Source: a virus
Taxonomy: Duplodnaviria; Heunggongvirae; Uroviricota; Caudoviricetes
Direction: 5' to 3' (one strand)
IMG/VR virus record: IMGVR_UViG_2579779007_000002
DNA length: 26,985 nucleotides
The notes beneath the pieces are model-generated. The model had not been told where the DNA came from. It did not search any database and saw nothing but the letters and a program-made list of their open reading frames with translations. This document shows positions 2,308 to 26,040 of the stretch, piece after piece; the first letter of the stretch is position 1, and every line of letters begins with the position of its first letter. Both the position numbers and the translations under genes were made by a program.

Positions 2308-3795
2308 TTACAGAATGAACTGAACTTGTGCCGCGAAAATGCGGAACTGGTTAATCAGATTCGGGCCGCACAGCACATCAAGACGGTCTTTGTCGTCCTT
2401 GTTACGTGCCACATACAGCTCCTCTTTGAACGTGTCGAAATCCTCGACCAGTCCGGCGTTTTCCCATTCTTCAAACAGTGCCAGCAGCTCCGTTTTGATC
2501 ACGGATGGCGTCACCACGGCCTGACCGGTGGCAAAGCGGGTGCCATCACTTGCCAGCTTGTAGTTCGGGAATTTCTGCGTGATGCGGGTTCGCAGCGAAT
2601 AACGCAGATAACTCAGCGTGGCGATGGTATTCACGTTCAGATAAGACGGATCACTGTCACCGTACTTGTTTGTGCGGTACATCGTGATCATGCGTTCAAT
2701 CTGCATTTCACCACCATCATTCACGTTAAACGTGGAGATGCCGTCAAACAGCAGCGCATTACGTTCTGACCAGGTGAAACGATCCCCCACCGCAGGCGGC
2801 ATTCTTCCGGGTAACGTCAGCGTCTGGAGTGGACGCGCCGGGTCGATGGAAAGCGCCTGGCTGGCAACGGCACACAGGGTGGCGGCGTACAGATATGACG
2901 GTTCCGGTGCACCGGCAATCCCCATACAGGAAATCAGATGGTCATTACGGCTGACACCAAACGTGGAAATATCCCCATACGTGCCGGACAGCACTGTCAC
3001 GGCAAAGCCATCAGCCTGATTGACTGGTCCCCAGCGTTCCTGCAATTCAGTGCGTAACAGATTCAGGTTCGGTTCATCGGTATAGGGCATCACAATATAT
3101 TTGTATTGCAGATCGCCCATTCCCGCGATACTTGCGCTGATATCCGGGTTGCTGTTTTTCCCGGATGCGGCTTTGAATGCCGTGATAATCCCGTAAGGGG
3201 TGGTTTCACCCGCGTAATAGTTCCAGCGCACGTCCACGGCAGATAATGCACCCGTAAATTTTGCACTCAGAACCACATCTGCATGGGTGTCATCATCCCC
3301 GCTGTCTGCGCGAACTTCTGCCGTCACCGGTAAATCAGGCTGGCCTTTGATTCGGGCAACCAGCAGGTCAGCCAGCGCCGCTCCCGTTGCACCTGCTGCG
3401 ACAGATACCGCCAGTCGCTGACCGGCAATGTAAGTCACAAGCGAGCCGTTTTCGCCTGCCGTTCCTGACAGTGAAATTTCACCGACAGCAGCATTACCGG
3501 TGCCGTTCCCCTGCGGAATACACCACAGCTCCGCCACGCGGTTAGCGTTCAGGAATGCATCTGCCATCAGTGCCAGCATGGAACCCTGACCAAACGCCGC
3601 ACAGGCCTGTGAGCCGGAACGGATACGGACAGGCACGTTTGGTGCCGCACTGGCTTTACTTCCGCTTTGCCCGAACATCAGCACGCGCTGACGGGGTGCC
3701 GGTGTTCCGCTGACGGCATTACTGTTATCAAATTCGATATACGTCAGAGGAACGCGAACATCTGACGGGATCGCGTTAAATGAAATATCGCTCAT
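2308..3795 (-). CDS. L: contractile tail sheath protein
   Basis: 495 aa ORF with sheath-like composition, same length as Mu L, followed by the tube gene. Confidence 0.85.
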
Positions 3796-3998
3796 TTCGA
3801 TTTACTCCGTTTTTTCGGCGTAGCGTCGGTATCATCCGCCGTGTTTTCAGTGCTCCCGACTTCAACCACATCACCGGCTGCAAGGCGACGTATCCAGAAA
3901 CTGTTACGGGGCTTTTCTTCTCCCTCCGGAGCCAGTAATTTCATCGTGAGCGGGTCACGGATGGCTTTTCCCGCTGCGGGTTTAATTTTCAGCATCAT
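3792..3998 (-). CDS. small hypothetical protein (Mu gp38 position)
   Basis: 68 aa ORF whose start overlaps the upstream gene by 17 nt; conserved slot upstream of sheath. Confidence 0.5.
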
Positions 3999-4530
3999 GA
4001 TCCTTTTCCTGATTCACATTGATATGTGCGGCAAATTCCGGGGTTTCGTCCGGGAATTTCCAGGTCTGCCAGTGACGCTCGTAATCATCCAGCGAATCCA
4101 TGTCCACCACGGACGGCAGCGGGGTAGTGCCACTGAACAGAACGCCGTAAAGCACCACACCGGCATTGATACGGTTGTCGTCACAAAGATTTCTGACCTG
4201 CGTCAGTCTCATCCCGGTGGTCGGGCCAAACGTCTGACCGTTAACACCGGCAATCAGTCGCTCCACAATCTGATAAATACCGGGCCGGTTTACCTGTTCC
4301 CCGTTCAGCAACTCCGCCACGACAAAAAATGCCCAGCGACTTTCAACTTCCCGACGCGTACGCCCCTCACCACAGCCCATCCATGCCAGAAATACCGATG
4401 GCGGGGCCAGAAAGAGACGGTGCACATCCTCGTTAGTCCATGTGCCGGTAAGGGGTTCCACCTGCCGCAGGGTTGCCCCAAACAACTCACGAACGCGCGC
4501 CAGCAGTGCGGCTTCGGTTTCTTCCAGCAT
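3982..4530 (-). CDS. head-tail joining / tail completion-like protein (Mu gp37 position)
   Basis: 182 aa ORF, start overlaps the stop of the upstream ORF (shared base 4530); syntenic with Mu J/K region. Confidence 0.55.
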   Translation of the reverse strand: MLEETEAALLARVRELFGATLRQVEPLTGTWTNEDVHRLFLAPPSVFLAWMGCGEGRTRREVESRWAFFVVAELLNGEQVNRPGIYQIVERLIAGVNGQTFGPTTGMRLTQVRNLCDDNRINAGVVLYGVLFSGTTPLPSVVDMDSLDDYERHWQTWKFPDETPEFAAHINVNQEKDHDAEN

Positions 4531-13198: not shown

Positions 13199-13789
13199 CT
13201 ACGCTTTCCCCAGCAGTACATCACGGATGCGCTGCTCCAGTTCTTCGCTGATGCCATCCTGCCCGCGCAGTTCTTCACTGACGGCGTTTGCCGCTTCTTC
13301 TGCGAACGCCTGGCGGATTTCTTTCTCGCGCCGGTGGCTGGACATTGCTGTGGATTCCAGACGCTGTGCCGCCAGCATGGCATTTTTCAGCAGGTCAATA
13401 TCCACGTCAGATTCCGGGTTTTCGATTTGCCGCATCATGGCCTTAAAAAGCTGGCTGCGGGCCATTTCCAGAATCAGCTTTGTGGTTTCGCCCATTGGCT
13501 TGTCGCCAAGCTCTGCGGTCAGTGCTGACGTCATTTCACGCATCTGTCGCAGGTTATGGCCTACCTGCTCGACGTTCGTCGCGTAACGGTTCAGACCGGA
13601 ACGGGAGAGTTTCATCTCATCCGGCAGGCCAGCGTCTTCAATCAGTGCGTTAATTTCTTCAAGAATACGGGCCTGTGGGATCGCCTTATCACGCAGCATT
13701 TCATGCAGCGTTTTACGTACGTTTTCCGGCAGTAAATCCACTTTTGAAGCCCGTCCCCGTGTTTTCCTGTCCATCACGCCTCCTGTCAT
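13199..13789 (-). CDS. D: terminase small subunit-like DNA-binding protein (Mu gp27 position)
   Basis: 196 aa ORF (start possibly internal Met 6) in the slot preceding large terminase in Mu. Confidence 0.6.
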   Translation of the reverse strand: MTGGVMDRKTRGRASKVDLLPENVRKTLHEMLRDKAIPQARILEEINALIEDAGLPDEMKLSRSGLNRYATNVEQVGHNLRQMREMTSALTAELGDKPMGETTKLILEMARSQLFKAMMRQIENPESDVDIDLLKNAMLAAQRLESTAMSSHRREKEIRQAFAEEAANAVSEELRGQDGISEELEQRIRDVLLGKA

Positions 13790-14076
13790 GCACGGGGACG
13801 CGGACGCTTGACACCGGCAATGCGGGCACGGCCTTCCGCCACATCCTGACCACGGGAGGTCAGCGTTACGACATAAAAGCCGCGCAGGTTTTCCACGGTG
13901 ACCAGTTGCTGCTCTGCCAGCCAGTCAATCTGGCCGCGAACCACATCACGGGAAACGTTGTGTCCGTATGCATCCAGACAGTCCTGAAGGATGGATTCGT
14001 TGGCTTCGTTATTGCAGTCCATCAGGGAACGCAGGATGACCAGACGACGGTCTTCGGTCAGAATATCGTTAATCAT
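13786..14076 (-). CDS. hypothetical protein (Mu gp26 position)
   Basis: 96 aa ORF with 4-nt overlaps to both neighbours. Confidence 0.5.
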   Translation of the reverse strand: MINDILTEDRRLVILRSLMDCNNEANESILQDCLDAYGHNVSRDVVRGQIDWLAEQQLVTVENLRGFYVVTLTSRGQDVAEGRARIAGVKRPRPRA

Positions 14077-14393
14077 GAATTACTCCGGTTTACTGCGTTT
14101 TCAAGCAGCAGCTCCAGTTGATGGGAAAATGACTGCACCCGCTGGGACAGCACCCGGATATCGCCGGACAGCTCTGCAATTCGCAGGCGCATTTCGTGTA
14201 CATCTTCTGTGCCAGGGATGCTGGCGTAGCGGGTTTCCATTTCGGTCATCCGGTTTTCAAGACGCTCCACACGCTCGGTGCTGGCAAAACTACGACGCAT
14301 CGCCCAGACGGCCCCACCGGCGGCGACAGGCAACAGGTACAACAGGTAAGGCCATAACGCTAAAACTGAATCCATTATTCTGCTCCACGGCAC
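14073..14393 (-). CDS. small membrane protein with N-terminal transmembrane helix; possible lysis accessory factor
   Basis: 106 aa; hydrophobic segment VLALWPYLLYLLPVAAGGAVWAM followed by charged coiled-coil-like tail; lies in the lysis cassette. Confidence 0.5.
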   Translation of the reverse strand: MPWSRIMDSVLALWPYLLYLLPVAAGGAVWAMRRSFASTERVERLENRMTEMETRYASIPGTEDVHEMRLRIAELSGDIRVLSQRVQSFSHQLELLLENAVNRSNS

Positions 14394-14569
14394 CAGTGGC
14401 AGTAGTTCGCCATCGGCTGCTGTCTCAGCACATCAGGCCGCAGCTCACGACCGCAACCGGCGCACAATACAGGCGGGTCATACGCCGCCGGACGGGGAAT
14501 ATCACGGGTATTCCCCTGCCAGAGTTCAGCGAGCAGCAGCGCCACCGCCCGGTTCTGGTCTTCGTTCAT
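14375..14569 (-). CDS. TraR/DksA-type C4 zinc-finger protein
   Basis: 64 aa with CAGC-x17-CHWC, matching the CxxC-x17-CxxC spacing of the TraR/DksA zinc finger. Confidence 0.5.
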   Translation of the reverse strand: MNEDQNRAVALLLAELWQGNTRDIPRPAAYDPPVLCAGCGRELRPDVLRQQPMANYCHWCRGAE

Positions 14570-14867
14570 AAATTTCTTTCCTCCGGGTCTCCTGTTCCCG
14601 GACTGATGCCTTGTCGCGGTTGCACTGCCCGAGCGCCATCAGCAGGTCAGCATTCCAGAGCAGGGATGCTCCCCACGTCAGGGGCTGTGGCATGGGCGGA
14701 ACGGGCGTTGCTTCCGTCAGTTCTGCATCAGTTTCGGGCAGGATCACCACCGATGGCACGGGTGCGTTTTTCGAGTTCCCGCAACCTGTCAGCAGCAACG
14801 GCAGGCACAGGACGAGTGCTGCAATTGTCACCGGTAATGGCGGTTGTAATTTTTTCTTTTGCATCAT
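14526..14867 (-). CDS. outer-membrane spanin lipoprotein (o-spanin)
   Basis: Start taken at the MM pair (14867/14864) inside track ORF 14526..14912: MMQKKK + hydrophobic core + lipobox LLTGC. Overlaps the i-spanin gene in another frame. Confidence 0.6.
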   Translation of the reverse strand: MMQKKKLQPPLPVTIAALVLCLPLLLTGCGNSKNAPVPSVVILPETDAELTEATPVPPMPQPLTWGASLLWNADLLMALGQCNRDKASVREQETRRKEIYERRPEPGGGAAAR

Positions 14868-15114
14868 GATGTTCTGTCTCATCTGCCAGCCGTGCGGCAC
14901 GATTTGCGGCACGGATAGCGGAAAATACCTGCATCATCTGTTCCTGACCGTGTAACAACCATTCAGCAGTGTGGCGGGCCTGTTGCTCCGTCTGTAATTT
15001 ACGGCGCAGCGTCTGGTTATCGTGGCGGGTGCTGTCCAGCCTGTGCCACAACACCCCGGACAGAACGGCGGCAAACACGGCTGCCAGAAGTAAACTTTTA
15101 CTGGCGAAGGTCAT
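14728..15114 (-). CDS. inner-membrane spanin (i-spanin)
   Basis: 128 aa with N-terminal transmembrane helix (LLLAAVFAAVLSGVLW) and charged periplasmic helical domain; immediately after endolysin. Confidence 0.6.
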   Translation of the reverse strand: MTFASKSLLLAAVFAAVLSGVLWHRLDSTRHDNQTLRRKLQTEQQARHTAEWLLHGQEQMMQVFSAIRAANRAARLADETEHHDAKEKITTAITGDNCSTRPVPAVAADRLRELEKRTRAIGGDPARN

Positions 15115-15616
15115 CCGCCCCCCTGATATTCCAGATTGCCATTTCCACTTCGCGACGGTTCATCAGTCCTTTCCATTTATGGCCTGCGGCAAACACCCAG
15201 CGGGCCATCTGGTCACGCGCTCCGGCGTAATCACCGGCATTGAGTTTTTTCAGCAGCGTTGATTTACTGAATGCGGTAACACCGGTGTTGAAAATAAACG
15301 TTGCCAGCGCCGTTTTCTGATATGGCGTCAGCGGCACCCTGACAAGACGATCGATTGCCGCATAAACCGGTTTTAAATCACTGTCGAGGAGAGCCATACA
15401 CTCCGCATGGCTGTAACGGCGCATTTCGATATCCGGCCCGGTATGTCCCACACAGACCGTAAGCACACCGGCAATATCGCGGTAAGGCATATAAGCGATA
15501 TTTTCCAGATGGATCAGAGAATGACGGGTCATTTCCTGATAACCACCCACACCGCCACCGGCAATCGTTGCCGCCAGCAGTGCGGCTTTCAGTTTTTTTG
15601 GTATCCCCGCCATCAT
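15098..15616 (-). CDS. lys: endolysin (phage lysozyme, SAR-type N-terminus)
   Basis: 172 aa; N-terminal weakly hydrophobic Gly/Ala-rich segment (KLKAALLAATIAGGGVGG) typical of signal-anchor-release endolysins; first gene after C, as lys in Mu. Confidence 0.85.
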   Translation of the reverse strand: MMAGIPKKLKAALLAATIAGGGVGGYQEMTRHSLIHLENIAYMPYRDIAGVLTVCVGHTGPDIEMRRYSHAECMALLDSDLKPVYAAIDRLVRVPLTPYQKTALATFIFNTGVTAFSKSTLLKKLNAGDYAGARDQMARWVFAAGHKWKGLMNRREVEMAIWNIRGADDLRQ

Positions 15617-15714
15617 GCTTCCCTGAAAAAATGCTCTGATGGCAGTCTAAAAAATCAGATGGCAGGTGCGGGATTATGGTGACAGGAAATAACCGGCAGG
15701 ATGCCGGTTATTTC
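15617..15714 (-). promoter_or_regulatory. late promoter region for lys with perfect 13-bp inverted repeat
   Basis: GAAATAACCGGCA-gga-TGCCGGTTATTTC at 15686-15714 straddles the C stop codon, about 70-100 bp upstream of the lys start. Confidence 0.45.
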
Positions 15715-16130
15715 TGGCTTTCAGGTGAGAACAGATCAGGCTGATGACGTCGTGTATGCAGCTTTCTCTGGCGGGCAATAATCTGGTAGATCTGCGGCTG
15801 GGACAGGCGGTACTGGCGACGCAGTTCTTCCATGTTACGACCATTGAACTGGCAGTAAAGCAAATCGTCGCGTAACGCGGTCAGGATAGTATCGCCGCAG
15901 GGGATGTAAAACTGCCGCCCCCCCAGAAAACAGGACAGGGCAACGGCCTGTTTACGGGCAAGCTCACGGGGATTGCTGACGTTCTGGCGTTTCAGTTCGT
16001 TTTCCAGAACATCAATCAGATCAACCACTGAACGGGGCCAGCGTGATTCCAGTTCCGGGGCCGGGATGTTATCAATATGCCCGATTAACTGGCGAATTGC
16101 CGGATCGTGTTCAAATAAATCATGCTGCAT
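15708..16130 (-). CDS. C: late transcription activator C (Mor/C family)
   Basis: 140 aa, same length as Mu C; shares the FxGRN..EL motif region with the Mor paralogue upstream. Confidence 0.85.
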   Translation of the reverse strand: MQHDLFEHDPAIRQLIGHIDNIPAPELESRWPRSVVDLIDVLENELKRQNVSNPRELARKQAVALSCFLGGRQFYIPCGDTILTALRDDLLYCQFNGRNMEELRRQYRLSQPQIYQIIARQRKLHTRRHQPDLFSPESQK

Positions 16131-16520
16131 ATTTTCCCCCGGTTAACAGACAAAAAGATACACCACGGCACTGATGGTTATCAGAACCACAAGGGCAATC
16201 ACTTTTATCGCATTAATCAGCGTGGACGGCCCGAAACATTCATCACTGAATTTTCTGTACACAATATTTTTCCTTATAACGTTGACAGTGGTGAAGAATT
16301 TCCGGCATATCAACTGACTGCCAGCCTTTCATGTAATAACTGCCGTGGGTGCCATCATGACCGGTATAGTCGCGGGGCGAAGGCCGAGGCCCACCGGCGA
16401 CACGGTGCAAAACCTCCTGACGCAGCCGCTCACGTCTGCCAAGATGAAAGGATGCATTCCAGCCTTTACCCATGATGATTTCCCCCGGTACGGTTATTCA
16501 TCACAGGATATTGAGGACGT
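16131..16520 (-). promoter_or_regulatory. mor-C intergenic region: expected Mor-dependent middle promoter and leader
   Basis: 390 bp without a convincing protein-like ORF, between the early terminator and C. Confidence 0.35.
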
Positions 16521-16545
16521 AAAAAAAGCCGGATTAACCGGCTTT
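16521..16545 (-). terminator. rho-independent terminator of the early transcript
   Basis: Minus-strand AAAGCCGG-uuaau-CCGGCUUU stem-loop followed by a run of 7 U, starting 6 nt after the mor stop codon. Confidence 0.65.
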
Positions 16546-16550
16546 ACTGT

Positions 16551-22741: not shown

Positions 22742-24835
22742 TTAAATGGCTTTTTTACGTCTGTTCTGTTCCAGAATATCCAGCGAATGATTCAGATATT
22801 CATCACGCTCAGTTTCGTATTCATCATCATGCACTTCCTCACACCTCAACGGCTGAACGGTCACCACATTACCAACAGGGCGATAAACATTATCCAGCCA
22901 GGGTTCTGTCGTTTTTTGTTCAATAACCTGAATACCTTCATCCTCAGCATCACGTATTTTTTCCTCAGCACGCTTGCGCATTCCTTTAATACGCTGCTGT
23001 TGTTTGTGATATTCAGCCGTAACAGGAAAGGCTGCGCGTTTATTGCCGTTCCATATCGCCTCACAGATAAAGCTACCGTCCTTACGGCGTACCGTAATTC
23101 GCTCGGCATCGTGAATGTCATAGCTGATAAGTACCTTGCGACCATGTTCATCACGTAGCTCTGGCGCGTAGTAAATATTGTTCAGCCACTGGATTTCGCA
23201 GCGTCTTACCGGACGCTCCACCATCGGGCGGAACATGTCACGCAGCTCAATATCACTCAGCCACTCAATTTCAGTGTCTTCTTCCGCTAAGCGTTTTTTT
23301 CTGAACTCTACCGGGCTGTAATGTTTTCCGTTTGGTTTCATCGGCAATTCAGAATGTGGGCGGTTGTTGTACCACTCCACCCCCTCACGGATAGCCTCAA
23401 TCAGTTCTGACCAGGACGGCAGCTCGCGCATTGCGGCTTTCTGACGGGCGCTCAGTGGCTTGTCCTGTTGCAGGGCATTAAACGCTGAACGCAGATCACG
23501 ATTAAGTATTCGCAACGATTCCCGGTCAGCCCCCTTGCCGAAATAGGTGCGATACCTCCTTGCTATACGCATCGGTAACGTCCGGTTCAGGCGCTCAATA
23601 ATGCCGCGTCCCTGCGGATTTCCCGCAATACCGGTGGGGTGGTTAATCCCCAGGCGGGGCAGAATCCCGACGATCTCTTTATCCAGCATATCTGCCGTTT
23701 CACCGGAACCATTATCCGAGTAATACAGGAATGGTTTTCCGTGATTGCGAATGCCGTGTTGTATCGCCCCGGCAACAGCGAACACGTTCTCCGCAAGATC
23801 AAGACTCCAGCCAACCACAAACCGGGTTCCACCGTCGATCACAAACGTAACTTCCGGTGAAAATGGACGCCCGTGAACCGGATGCGCACATTTCAGCTTC
23901 ATACCGTGACCGTCACCAATCCAGACATAATTCACCGGCATAGCTGTCCAGTCGCGGCGGGTGAATCCTTCAAGCTGACGGTATTCACTGCCGGTAACGC
24001 GCCCTTTTTGTTTCACCACTTCCGGCAGTTTTTTCATGGCATACCGGACAACATCATAGGAAGGCATCACCTCCAGCATGTATGGTTCGTCCGCATGGCG
24101 ACGCTGCCAATCAGCGACAAAATCCTCGTAGGCTTCTGACATAGGCCTGCCGTTAGCCTGACGATACTGCGCCAGAAATTCAGGCAGCCAGCTAATTTCT
24201 TCCGGTTTTATTTCGTCGCGCTTTCCTGGTGCCAGTAACAGCAATCGTTCTGCGGCATTCTGTGCTTTGTTAAACGCAGCTATCCAACGTTTGAGCGTAA
24301 TTGCGCTCAGAGTTCGCTCTTTCCCTTTACGGGCATTAGCAGTAATGACCAAAGATTCCAGGCGTTCTTCCAGGTTACCCTGAGCTAACCGCGACACAAT
24401 AAAACGTATAGCGCTGGCACAACTGAATCCCGGCTCCTGGCTAATTCGTAGAACTTCACAGACAAGAGCAATACGCGCTTCTGCAACTTTACGTTGATTT
24501 TCCGTAAGCGCATTCAGACGCTCTTCTACCAATTGTGGCGAACCGCGATATGCCTCAACAGGCTGTACAACATTTTGTTTGCGTTCACGCTTTACAGGAG
24601 GCTGGGTAGTTATCTCCTGCGGGGCGGTTGCCATCAGTTGAGCTACATGGCGCTCACGTAACGCCCGTTGTGTAACCGGAGGGAGGCAGTCGATGCTGTA
24701 TTCAATGGTTTTTGAACCCGCACGTTTGCGCCTGAAATGCTCAGATGAGGCCAGTTTCCTTATGGAATACCGCACCCCTTGCGCAGTTCCCGGCATACCT
24801 GGTAGCCCTACAAGCTCATTAACTGACACAAACAT
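22742..24835 (-). CDS. A: DDE transposase A (MuA-type)
   Basis: 697 aa; C-terminal end ...ERDEYLNHSLDILEQNRRKKAI matches my recollection of Mu A; N-terminal domain is Mu-type winged helix but divergent in sequence. Confidence 0.9.
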   Translation of the reverse strand: MFVSVNELVGLPGMPGTAQGVRYSIRKLASSEHFRRKRAGSKTIEYSIDCLPPVTQRALRERHVAQLMATAPQEITTQPPVKRERKQNVVQPVEAYRGSPQLVEERLNALTENQRKVAEARIALVCEVLRISQEPGFSCASAIRFIVSRLAQGNLEERLESLVITANARKGKERTLSAITLKRWIAAFNKAQNAAERLLLLAPGKRDEIKPEEISWLPEFLAQYRQANGRPMSEAYEDFVADWQRRHADEPYMLEVMPSYDVVRYAMKKLPEVVKQKGRVTGSEYRQLEGFTRRDWTAMPVNYVWIGDGHGMKLKCAHPVHGRPFSPEVTFVIDGGTRFVVGWSLDLAENVFAVAGAIQHGIRNHGKPFLYYSDNGSGETADMLDKEIVGILPRLGINHPTGIAGNPQGRGIIERLNRTLPMRIARRYRTYFGKGADRESLRILNRDLRSAFNALQQDKPLSARQKAAMRELPSWSELIEAIREGVEWYNNRPHSELPMKPNGKHYSPVEFRKKRLAEEDTEIEWLSDIELRDMFRPMVERPVRRCEIQWLNNIYYAPELRDEHGRKVLISYDIHDAERITVRRKDGSFICEAIWNGNKRAAFPVTAEYHKQQQRIKGMRKRAEEKIRDAEDEGIQVIEQKTTEPWLDNVYRPVGNVVTVQPLRCEEVHDDEYETERDEYLNHSLDILEQNRRKKAI

Positions 24836-24837
24836 TT

Positions 24838-25074
24838 TTATGCCACCTTACGAGCGTAACGGCTGGGCCAGATCTCCTCCGGCGCAACACCAATAGCATC
24901 AGCAATAATGCGCTCATATTTTGGGCATTTGCGGTACAGGGCATTCTTTAAAGAATCCTGGTTTAAACCGGCTTCAATGGACAGAGAGCGTAAAGTAAAA
25001 CCTTTTACATGCACCGCCGCGACAACATGCGCGGGGTGCCAGTCCTGTTTAACAACTTCATTTATAGACATCAT
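24838..25074 (-). CDS. ner: Ner-like early transcriptional regulator
   Basis: Start set at the MM pair (25074) preceded by AAGGA, giving ~78 aa; contains DWH...IIA-A....PE.IWPSRY pattern shared with Mu Ner. Track ORF extends to 25146 (102 aa). Confidence 0.7.
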   Translation of the reverse strand: MMSINEVVKQDWHPAHVVAAVHVKGFTLRSLSIEAGLNQDSLKNALYRKCPKYERIIADAIGVAPEEIWPSRYARKVA

Positions 25075-25254
25075 TCGTTTATCCTTAAAAGTTATCTGTG
25101 CGGATAACACCGCCGGATAATCTCTGCGGATAAAGTATTGATCCACATGTGGTGCATGTAAAGCAAAAATTTGATTTTCTTTTGCCTGATATGGATCGAT
25201 TGTGTTTTCTATTGAAATTATCCTTTTGCATCAATTAGATAAGAGGAAAGAAAA
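25075..25254. promoter_or_regulatory. divergent early/repressor promoter and operator region
   Basis: Three direct (G/C)CGGATAA repeats at 25100, 25113 and 25126 (13-bp phasing); inverted repeat GTTATC-n6-GATAAC at 25091-25108; IHF-like AATCAAATTTTTG (minus strand) at 25164-25176; TTGAAA-17 bp-TTAGAT upstream of the repressor start. Confidence 0.6.
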
Positions 25255-25800
25255 ATGGATAAGCTGAAAGGAAAGTCACTTTCTTTGCCAGAAGTGACAA
25301 AAGAAAGTATCCCGGAGCGTTTGAGAGAATTAATTGGAAAAAGAAGTGTAAGGGCTGCTGCGAAAGATTGGGGGTTGTCGTTTTCCACTTTAAACAATTA
25401 CCTGACGCGAGGTACTGAACCTTCACTCAGTGTGGCTCGGCAGATAGCTGCAATTGAAGGGGTTACTATCGAATGGATATGTGGATCACATGATGATTCA
25501 CATGAGAATCACCCAATTTCAACTAACACGCATAATGAGAATACAAAACTCATTATGAACATCATTAACGCCTTGGATGCAAAGGATATTGAGCGACTAT
25601 CTAAGACTCTTGCCCTCAATGGTGCTAAGTATCTGACTCAAATGTTGGAACCCGAAAATCAAGGCTTACTGCGTCTTGAAGGACGAAAACGTGTCGCCGC
25701 GCTGCTATTAGATGATTTACCTGATGAGCGTATCAGAGAGATTTTGGAAGAAATTGAGAGCAGCAAACTCTCAAGTAGTGTAAAATCGAGAGCGGGCTAG
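25255..25800 (+). CDS. prophage repressor, XRE-type helix-turn-helix
   Basis: 181 aa, divergent from ner/A/B as for Mu c; motif KDWGLSFSTLNNYLTRGTEPSLSVARQIAAIEGVTIEWI resembles Cro/cI-type helix-turn-helix rather than a Mu-type winged helix. Confidence 0.65.
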   Translation: MDKLKGKSLSLPEVTKESIPERLRELIGKRSVRAAAKDWGLSFSTLNNYLTRGTEPSLSVARQIAAIEGVTIEWICGSHDDSHENHPISTNTHNENTKLIMNIINALDAKDIERLSKTLALNGAKYLTQMLEPENQGLLRLEGRKRVAALLLDDLPDERIREILEEIESSKLSSSVKSRAG

Positions 25801-25854
25801 TTCAATTAGCCCGCAGTGAACAGATTTTGAAGGCATTTAAAATGCTAAAATTGC

Positions 25855-26040
25855 AGTAACGCGTAGTATCAAATATTTTTTCGTTTTTAGCTTTCTTTGC
25901 GATGGTAGTATCAAATCGCATGTTGTGCGCATAACACTGTTTTATGTCATAACTGTTTGTTTTATCCCATCAAATCCCGTTTAATCCACTTTCCTCCCGG
26001 ATTTTTCACCAGTATCAAATAATTTACCTCTCTATATTCA
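25855..26040. repeat. prophage left-end terminal repeats (putative transposase binding sites L3, L2, L1)
   Basis: AGTATCAAAT at 25865-25874, 25907-25916 and 26011-26020, all in one orientation; reverse complement of 25990-26010 (...AAAAATCCGGGAGGA...) resembles the Mu left end. Confidence 0.55.

Follow-up and report, generated by a model that had tools for sequence, protein, structure and literature searches.

The minus-strand region at positions 14073-15114 of the window (the whole stretch of DNA analysed here, IMG/VR record IMGVR_UViG_2579779007_000002, 26,985 nucleotides, part of a prophage, about 26 kb of it) is the lysis gene cluster of a phage Mu/SfMu-like prophage, an ordinary and already well studied locus. 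On the evidence of homology, it very probably represents the lysis module within a late ‘lys’ operon, that of a transposable prophage of the Mu/SfMu type, and works most likely as in Mu. Over 2.5 kb, DNA identity reaches 99.2% with Shigella phage SfMu and 97.8% with phage Mu, and the cassette proteins are 96-100% identical to counterparts studied experimentally in Mu, which is the reason why we infer the lysis mechanism of this prophage from them. In Mu, gp22 is a SAR endolysin, gp23 and gp23.1 are the spanins, and gp25, a DUF2730 protein, is the ‘releasin’ needed to free the membrane-held endolysin, whereas the lack of a holin has been shown experimentally (Chamblee et al., 2022; PMC9239132). 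As a discovery the cassette matters little, being a near-identical copy of a dissected Mu module, and holin-less lysis has been known from the literature since 2022.

Gene Organization and Genomic Context

A preliminary description of this DNA had proposed a lysis cassette with overlapping spanins downstream of an endolysin, and this is confirmed; all the features are found on the minus strand. The cassette consists of the following genes:

15098..15613, minus strand: gp22, SAR endolysin of 171 aa, a phage lysozyme with an N-terminal signal-anchor-release segment (Pfam Phage_lysozyme, E=1e-37)
14728..15114, minus strand: gp23, i-spanin of 128 aa with an N-in transmembrane (TM) anchor at residues 4-22 (PHROG 214 Rz-like spanin, E=5e-34; Mu annotation)
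14526..14867, minus strand: gp23.1, o-spanin of 113 aa, an outer-membrane lipoprotein (Pfam LysC, E=7.6e-15; PHROG 3001/456 spanin)
14375..14569, minus strand: gp24, small soluble C4 zinc-finger protein of 64 aa with a putative DksA/TraR-type finger and an N-terminal helix (PHROG 3260, unknown function)
14073..14375, minus strand: gp25, putative releasin of 100 aa, DUF2730, with a single N-out/C-in TM helix and a cytoplasmic helical domain (Pfam DUF2730, E=2.5e-13)

The Mu record labels its genes in the same order as SAR endolysin, i-spanin, o-spanin, hypothetical gp24 and releasin, and its overlaps match too. In the SfMu records the o-spanin gene is unannotated, and the RefSeq labels of gp25 and gp24 are merely ‘DUF2730’ and ‘hypothetical’, respectively. 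Two distant Mu-like prophages also carry all four genes gp23, gp23.1, gp24 and gp25, arranged as here and at 42-61% identity, with the lipobox, the cysteines and the TM segments intact; because of this conservation they are not chance ORFs.

The cassette is flanked by the following genes and regulatory elements, of which the terminator and the promoter were mapped from the Mu annotation onto the window, the terminator through the alignment A3:

16143..16262, minus strand: gp20, middle gene of 39 aa with a GTG start and one C-terminal TM segment (tblastn)
15708..16130, minus strand: late transcription activator C (gp21, Mor family; Pfam Mor, E=9.3e-34; annotated in Mu)
15687..15710, minus strand: stem-loop terminator after C, CCGGCATCCTGCCGG followed by a T-run
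15624..15690, minus strand: predicted Plys, late promoter of the lysis/head operon that depends on C (annotated in Mu as ‘Late promoter activated by C’)
13786..14076, minus strand: gp26, winged-helix protein after the cassette and before gp27 (NCBIfam VpaChn25_0724 family, E=5.3e-38)
13199-13774: gp27, small terminase (Pfam Phage_Mu_Gp27, E=1.4e-52)

C, which we take to be the activator of the lys promoter, is identical to its Mu homologue at 139 of 141 aligned positions and to that of SfMu at all 141. The terminator sequence that follows its gene is invariant in the window, Mu and SfMu, and Plys, whose function as a C-dependent promoter is presumed by homology, carries two substitutions with respect to Mu and none with respect to SfMu. 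At the other end of the cassette, gp26 matches Mu gp26 at 96 of 97 aligned positions. The product of the middle gene gp20, 100% identical to SfMu gp20 and 95% to Mu gp20 by tblastn, is the sole other membrane protein nearby.

The Endolysin and the Overlapping Spanins

The endolysin gp22, whose Pfam Phage_lysozyme score exceeds the curated cut-off and which also matches a PHROG endolysin family, is identical to the Mu protein at 170 of 172 aligned positions, and K6, K7, E37, D46 and T52 are conserved between the two. The protein, with the sequence MAGIPKKLKAALLAATIAGGGVGGY, combines the features of a SAR endolysin, since the lysozyme domain is preceded by a weakly hydrophobic segment (maximum Kyte-Doolittle mean 1.05, under the TM threshold) which, in turn, follows basic residues.

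The i-spanin gp23 (125 of 129 aligned positions identical to Mu gp23) is a type II inner-membrane protein, as indicated by the hydropathy of its N-terminal TM domain and by its PHROG 214 assignment, with a single cysteine, Cys98, in the periplasmic domain. As the preliminary description had recognized, its gene contains the start of the o-spanin gene in another frame, with the lipobox LLTGC. In particular, gp23.1 starts at the ATG at 14867, in the +1 frame and with an offset of 247 nt; it overlaps gp23 by 140 nt, extends 202 nt beyond the gp23 stop and overlaps gp24 by 44 nt at its 3′ end. An o-spanin ORF of 128 aa extended to a GTG codon (14526-14912) was rejected because the ATG at 14867 matches the curated Mu start and the annotated RBS. 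The product shows an n-region with three basic residues and the lipobox cysteine (L-T-G-C, Cys29) followed by Gly at +2, hence not Asp, and then by N; the position of its gene across that of the i-spanin is also that of an o-spanin. It carries a single periplasmic cysteine (Cys82), scores 55 bits against a cut-off of 27 with Pfam LysC, is conserved in L003 and L004 and is identical to the Mu_55 o-spanin at 110 of 114 aligned positions. The remark that this frame, reaching 14526, is unusually long for an o-spanin does not hold, the protein having the same length, 113 aa, as Mu gp23.1 and belonging, by its LysC match, to the overlapped o-spanin family of the P2 type. On the whole, the hydropathy results, obtained by a plain Kyte-Doolittle scan, and the lipobox fit the topologies assigned to these proteins.

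In Mu, amber mutants in 23 and 23.1 show the spherical-cell phenotype typical of a spanin defect (PMC9239132), and a survey of spanins placed those of Mu in a separate sequence family (Kongari et al., 2018; PMC6139136).

The Zinc-Finger Protein gp24

The small protein gp24 (64 of 65 aligned positions identical to Mu gp24) contains Cys36, 39, 57 and 60 in the arrangement CxxC-x17-CxxC; these four cysteines do not vary across the family alignment A2, nor do they in the homologues of L003 and L004. The preliminary description had reported a 64-aa ORF overlapping the o-spanin gene and bearing a TraR/DksA finger of this spacing; the overlap and the spacing stand, while the resemblance to TraR does not go beyond the finger.

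[quoted passage not shown] Several observations go in this direction: the CxxC-x17-CxxC spacing is accompanied by a Pro four residues ahead of the third Cys, the finger spans residues 34-62, that of F TraR 35-63 (hhalign, P=2.4e-4), the best PDB profile match is the DksA protein 2kq9 (E=0.028), and NCBIfam DksA_like is matched at E=0.019, with 15.3 bits against a cut-off of 105. In an AlphaFold model (pLDDT 79), the top PDB match found by Foldseek is TraR 6n57_M (E=0.19), DksA fingers can be superposed on it over 30 residues at 0.6-1.1 A, and the top two BFVD matches are phage proteins with DksA/TraR zinc fingers. Furthermore, A2 shows no variation at the N-terminal residues E3 and D4, and the Apirhabdus homologue in L004 has D-D there. 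However, none of the DksA/TraR matches is statistically significant, and Pfam zf-dskA_traR (PF01258) gives no match at E<=10 for gp24 nor for its 3 relatives; the evidence, consistent but sub-threshold, hints at a DksA/TraR-type finger.

The DxxDxA motif of the N-terminal helix is critical for TraR function (PMC9239242), but the corresponding position in gp24 reads ExxNxA (E3-D-Q-N6-R-A8), which is not kept in the relatives and has no equivalent in P0007 and L004. The N-terminal helix of gp24 is predicted at residues 3-16 only and is followed by a Pro-rich linker. In the TraR/DksA family, the C-terminal helix after the finger contacts RNAP beta-Si1; this helix is missing in gp24, which ends at residue 64, 4 residues past Cys60, and whose model shows only H58-61. 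To sum up the comparison, gp24 resembles TraR, lambda Orf73 and P2 Orf82 in size (64 aa against 73), in its N-terminal helix and acidic N-terminus and in the position of the CxxC-x17-CxxC finger, and differs from them in lacking the Pfam match, the DxxDxA motif and the C-terminal helix; because of these differences a TraR-like function is unlikely.

Searches for relatives gave few sequences. A word-indexed search for homologues returned 3 matches, all near-identical or frameshifted, an exhaustive HMMER search added two further true relatives, and the cluster representatives are 3 among 1.84 billion proteins. Twelve other HMMER matches were discarded as long repetitive proteins with a Pro/Cys stretch of roughly 20 residues, the Pfam matches to NinF and DUF7575 (12-residue CxxC) were regarded as motif noise, and single-sequence phmmer against the PDB gave a chance match to a hydrolase alone. 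It is conceivable, if rather doubtful, that gp24 is a minimal, divergent protein of DksA/TraR fold, restricted to enterobacterial Mu-like phages and always placed between o-spanin and releasin, with an undescribed late function such as non-canonical RNA polymerase binding or modulation of the endolysin/releasin step. For plasmid-driven lysis in Mu, gp24 is dispensable; a literature search on Mu gp24 gave nothing relevant, and the study of Mu lysis does not mention it (PMC9239132).

The Putative Releasin gp25 and Probable Lysis Without a Holin

The last gene of the cassette, the fourth after gp22, had been described in the preliminary analysis as encoding a small membrane protein of 106 aa with one N-terminal TM helix, to which no role was given. 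The protein and its single helix (residues 4-22, followed by RR, by hydropathy) are real, but it is the DUF2730 protein gp25, and its length needs correction. The start is most likely the ATG at 14375, giving 100 aa, and not the GTG at 14393, giving 106 aa: the former overlaps the stop codon of gp24 (TAATG), the annotations of Mu and SfMu have an MD... start, and MD is also where the longest ORF begins in L004, a diverged relative. With PF10805 the protein scores 50.4 bits against a cut-off of 24.9; it is identical to SfMu gp25 and matches Mu gp25 at 97 of 103 aligned positions, the TM helix differing from that of Mu by small indels (MDSVLALWPYLLYLLPVAAGG vs MDLISVLALWPYLLPVVAGG) and agreeing fully with the one in SfMu, an active phage. 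Its function as a releasin would follow from the work on Mu, in which deletion of gene 25 blocks timely lysis, whereas gp22 and gp25 alone suffice for cell lysis (PMC9239132).

The earlier remark that no classical holin candidate is present is borne out, as no ORF with 2-4 hydrophobic segments was found on the coding strand near the cassette or in the window (~26 kb of prophage) by a simple hydropathy scan, a plain Kyte-Doolittle window and not a trained predictor. The missing holin would be explained by gp25 acting as a releasin, as published for Mu (PMC9239132).

One might ask whether gp25 is itself a holin. The protein is small, late-expressed and membrane-bound, and its gene lies in one cluster with those of the endolysin and the spanins; moreover, SAR endolysins elsewhere pair with pinholins, as in phages 21 and P1, so that the cassette could be read as a conventional pinholin and SAR-endolysin system in which a single-TM gp25 times lysis by depolarisation. 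This is very improbable, given that Mu gp25, with 97 of 103 aligned positions identical, had no holin properties when tested (Chamblee et al., 2022; PMC9239132), and that gp25, with its one TM helix, exposes only about 4 residues to the periplasm, its domain of about 73 aa being cytoplasmic.

The chance that the late cassette supplies only endolysin and spanins while the middle-gene membrane proteins gp19 and gp20 form a holin/antiholin pair, as Samanta et al. reportedly proposed, is close to negligible, because gp20 (39 aa, one TM, 16143-16262) is present but gene 19 is cleanly absent both here, where Mu gp19 has no tblastn match, and in the active phage SfMu. This natural lack of gene 19 independently supports the view that gp19 is not a lysis protein, and in Mu gp19 and gp20, like gp25, had no holin properties (PMC9239132).

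Proposed Lysis Mechanism

In the mechanism that we favor, modelled on Mu, the activator C would switch on Plys late in infection. The endolysin gp22 would be exported via Sec yet remain inactive, tethered to the inner membrane through an N-terminal SAR segment of weak hydrophobicity, which lysines 6 and 7, on the cytoplasmic side, would retain in the membrane. The membrane-tethered cytoplasmic protein gp25 (N-out, C-in) would then promote the escape of the SAR segment from the bilayer, and this release would activate the muramidase with no need for a holin or for a membrane-potential collapse timed by one. After degradation of the peptidoglycan, the complex of gp23, in the inner membrane, and gp23.1, an outer-membrane lipoprotein, would disrupt the outer membrane. 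The small zinc-finger protein gp24 would be co-transcribed with the lysis genes, and lysis would not need it.

Comparison With Known Lysis Systems

The closest relatives of the cassette are those of SfMu and Mu. SfMu (NC_027382 / KP010268; PMC4406740), a phage that is inducible, lyses cells and forms plaques (PMC4406740), has identical gp24 and gp25, a gp23.1 that is 1 residue apart and a mor-C interval with the same deletion of gene 19; it differs in 2 residues of gp22 and 5 of gp23, and in its early region the window does not resemble SfMu. With the Mu lys operon (AF083977; Chamblee et al., 2022, mBio, PMC9239132), gene order, overlaps and reading frames are shared, and the conservation extends to Plys, to the LTGC lipobox and the DUF2730 domain and, in gp22, to the catalytic triad and K6/K7, whereas the differences are a few substitutions, the small indels in the TM helix of gp25, which has 100 aa here and 99 in Mu, and, upstream, the missing gene 19 (4 TM).

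Among more distant systems, the overlapped spanins of the P2 LysB/LysC type (Pfam LysC, PF23793) also have an o-spanin gene whose +1 frame opens within that of the i-spanin and passes its stop, encoding a lipoprotein with a Pro-rich periplasmic domain, and one periplasmic Cys per subunit; in this cassette, however, the 3′ end of the o-spanin gene overlaps the next gene, gp24, too. Finally, the pinholin and SAR-endolysin systems of phage 21 (S68/R21) and P1 (Lyz) likewise employ a SAR endolysin tethered to the inner membrane and activated on release, but there the release is driven by holin-dependent depolarisation, whereas the Mu type dispenses with a holin and requires the DUF2730 releasin (PMC9239132).

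Organization and relationship of the lysis genes

The minus strand of the window, read for genes between 13500 and 16200, carries a tightly packed row of genes that includes the lysis cassette (14073-15114).

Genes of the lysis region, with identity to the Mu proteins counted over aligned positions, stop codon included
15708-16130, minus: late transcription activator C, 140 aa, Mor family; 139/141
15098-15613, minus: endolysin gp22, 171 aa counted from the second Met; 170/172
14728-15114, minus: i-spanin gp23, 128 aa, N-terminal TM anchor; 125/129
14526-14867, minus: o-spanin gp23.1, 113 aa, lipobox LTGC; 110/114
14375-14569, minus: gp24, 64 aa, CxxC-x17-CxxC (Cys36, 39, 57, 60); 64/65
14073-14375, minus: gp25, 100 aa, one N-terminal TM helix; 97/103
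13786-14076, minus: gp26, 96 aa, winged helix; 96/97
13199-13774, minus: small terminase gp27, 191 aa, Phage_Mu_Gp27 family; 192/192

The o-spanin ORF lies in the +1 frame, starting 247 nt inside the i-spanin gene and ending 202 nt beyond its stop, and its 3' end overlaps the start of gp24 by 44 nt, so that all three frames are in use within 14526-15114. In its signal peptide, three basic residues and a hydrophobic core lead up to L-T-G-C, the cysteine being Cys29, and Gly-Asn comes next. Hydropathy gives gp25 a single hydrophobic segment (residues 4-22) followed by Arg-Arg. Re-reading of the ORFs, lipobox, cysteines and TM segment on the minus strand bears out the coordinates and motifs of the preliminary description. 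The 106-aa length it gave to the last gene rests on a GTG at 14393 and is to be corrected to 100 aa, the conserved start being the ATG at 14375, which overlaps the gp24 stop as TAATG. This 'MD...' start is used in the Mu and SfMu annotation, and in a diverged relative, the Apirhabdus apintestini prophage, the longest gp25 ORF itself opens there.

By its sequence, the cassette belongs to the Mu/SfMu lysis module, of which it is practically a strain variant, and the endolysin, spanin and releasin features that define the module are all readable in it. A 2.5-kb DNA query around it matches Shigella phage SfMu at 99.2% identity and phage Mu and D108-type phages at 97.8%. In the curated Mu record AF083977 the homologous genes follow one another in the same order, overlap in the same way and are labelled transcription regulator C, SAR endolysin (gp22), i-spanin (gp23), o-spanin (Mu_55 = gp23.1), hypothetical protein (gp24), releasin (gp25, DUF2730), winged-HTH protein (gp26) and small terminase (gp27). 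The window gp24 and gp25 are identical to their SfMu counterparts, and the C-dependent promoter Plys and the terminator after C are kept almost base for base. Family matches agree, to Phage_lysozyme (gp22, E=1e-37), LysC, an Rz1-like o-spanin family (gp23.1, E=7.6e-15), DUF2730 (gp25, E=2.5e-13), Mor (C) and Phage_Mu_Gp27 (gp27), as do PHROG matches to endolysin and Rz-like spanin families. The cassette is present in 41 of 5426 complete E. coli genomes, and all of it except the role of gp24 falls within published knowledge.

Probable lysis without a holin

No classical holin had been seen in this region, correctly so: hydropathy of every ORF of 35-250 aa gave no multi-TM ORF on the coding strand of the window, and the only other nearby membrane protein is gp20, a 39-aa middle-gene product (16143-16262, GTG start). 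The explanation is published for Mu, a phage that has no holin and in which holin properties are absent from every membrane protein (PMC9239132); the 'small membrane protein' of the preliminary description is gp25, the predicted releasin. Chamblee et al. 2022 (PMC9239132) identified Mu gp22 as a signal-anchor-release endolysin; without gene 25, cells fail to lyse on time, although gp22 is produced and is releasable by chloroform, gp22 and gp25 alone suffice for lysis, K6 and K7 of gp22 confer the dependence on gp25, and amber mutations in 23/23.1 yield spherical cells, the classic spanin defect (PMC9239132). The window gp22 keeps K6 and K7 as well as the catalytic E37, D46 and T52, and near-identity to Mu makes it very probable that the cassette works in the same way.

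Mu gene 19, encoding a 4-TM protein once proposed as a holin, is cleanly absent, about 370 bp missing between window positions 16259 and 16261. The gap exactly matches SfMu, and the mor-C interval (16131-16550), with a gp18-like ORF (16243-16473, 76 aa), is of SfMu type at 99.5% identity. Since SfMu is inducible, lyses cells and forms plaques (PMC4406740), this shared absence lends natural support to gp19 being irrelevant to lysis.

In two diverged Mu-like prophage loci (L003, 2957-3469; L004, of A. apintestini, 2964-3470) the endolysin has one Lys in its N-terminal cytoplasmic stub (MPSIPKSLK and MASKLPKTLS, respectively) in comparison with K6-K7 of Mu, and the DUF2730 gene is kept despite this.

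The zinc-finger protein gp24

The gp24 family is extremely narrow, with three true members of 64-69 aa among 1.84 billion representatives searched exhaustively with HMMER. A genome scan gave two loci, in an Enterobacteriaceae MAG and in A. apintestini, both Mu-like prophages sharing the order C-lys-spanins-gp24-gp25-gp26-gp27. The four Cys are invariant in all relatives, including these two homologues; the aligned members all share E3 and D4, and the Apirhabdus homologue has D-D.

The TraR-like finger of the preliminary description is better read as a resemblance than as a function. Matches to DksA/TraR are all sub-threshold, but they agree with one another and are in register: the PDB profile matches are led by the DksA protein 2kq9 (E=0.028), NCBIfam DksA_like gives E=0.019, and hhalign pairs residues 34-62 with 35-63 of F TraR (P=2.4e-4). 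The AlphaFold model (pLDDT 79) has TraR 6n57_M as top Foldseek PDB match (E=0.19) and superposes on DksA fingers at 0.6-1.1 A across 30 residues, and phage DksA/TraR zinc-finger proteins take the first two places among the BFVD matches (E about 0.1). The resemblance is thus probably real. Membership of the family and a TraR-like function are, however, unlikely: none of the gp24 proteins matches Pfam zf-dskA_traR, the DxxDxA motif, which TraR needs for its activity, is absent, and so is the C-terminal helix, which in TraR contacts beta-Si1, because gp24 ends 4 residues past its last Cys; homologues lacking such features do not behave like DksA or TraR (PMC9239242). In the Mu two-plasmid system gp24 is unnecessary for lysis (PMC9239132).

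At least one E. coli genome has a 46-aa frameshifted or truncated gp24 variant, in which the finger is lost after about residue 25; this fits a gp24 that a prophage can do without.

A mosaic prophage and its probable insertion site

The whole window is Mu-like prophage, from about 25.5 kb in Mu coordinates to the prophage left end, which adjoins a prophage tail-fibre gene at about 26033/26034 (...gagctgaatat/agagaggtaaattatttgatactggtgaaaaatccgggagg...). The segment 26034-26985 is not Mu-like, sharing 99.6% identity with 'prophage tail fiber N-terminal domain' genes of the E. coli chromosome and 92% with stf of phage JL22; from this flank, the Mu-like prophage appears to have transposed into the tail-fibre gene of another resident prophage.

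The late region is closest to SfMu. In contrast, the early region (22832-26033), which has ner-like and repressor-like (25255-25800, plus strand) ORFs, is not Mu/D108-like beyond the end of transposase A (22742-24835, 697 aa), its only matches being Yersinia phages vB_YpM_5 and vB_YpM_6 (96%), which makes the element a mosaic.

The o-spanin in comparison with known spanins

Described at first as unusually long, gp23.1 (113 aa, mature form 85 aa) has exactly the length of its Mu counterpart and covers positions 1-66 of the 69 of the LysC profile. The C-terminal tail, where the gene overlaps gp24, persists in prophages of only 56-60% identity, and the length of gp23.1 is normal for its own family.

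The o-spanin gene is unannotated in both SfMu records (NC_027382 and KP010268; 3834-4175 of the SfMu locus), as is typical for overlapped spanins; its ORF is intact there and identical to the window gp23.1 at 113 of 114 aligned positions. In the A. apintestini locus (CP138906) the i-spanin is readable for about 68 residues before its frame is broken and joins that of the o-spanin, making a 198-aa fused ORF (3442-4038) and leaving the C-terminal part of the i-spanin as a separate 76-aa ORF (3609-3839), a probable frameshift, pseudogene or sequencing error.

Among known systems, gp23.1 is longer than Rz1 of lambda (60 aa). Its overlapped architecture is among those in the catalogue of Kongari et al. 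2018, which lists Mu and D108 as a spanin family (PMC6139136).
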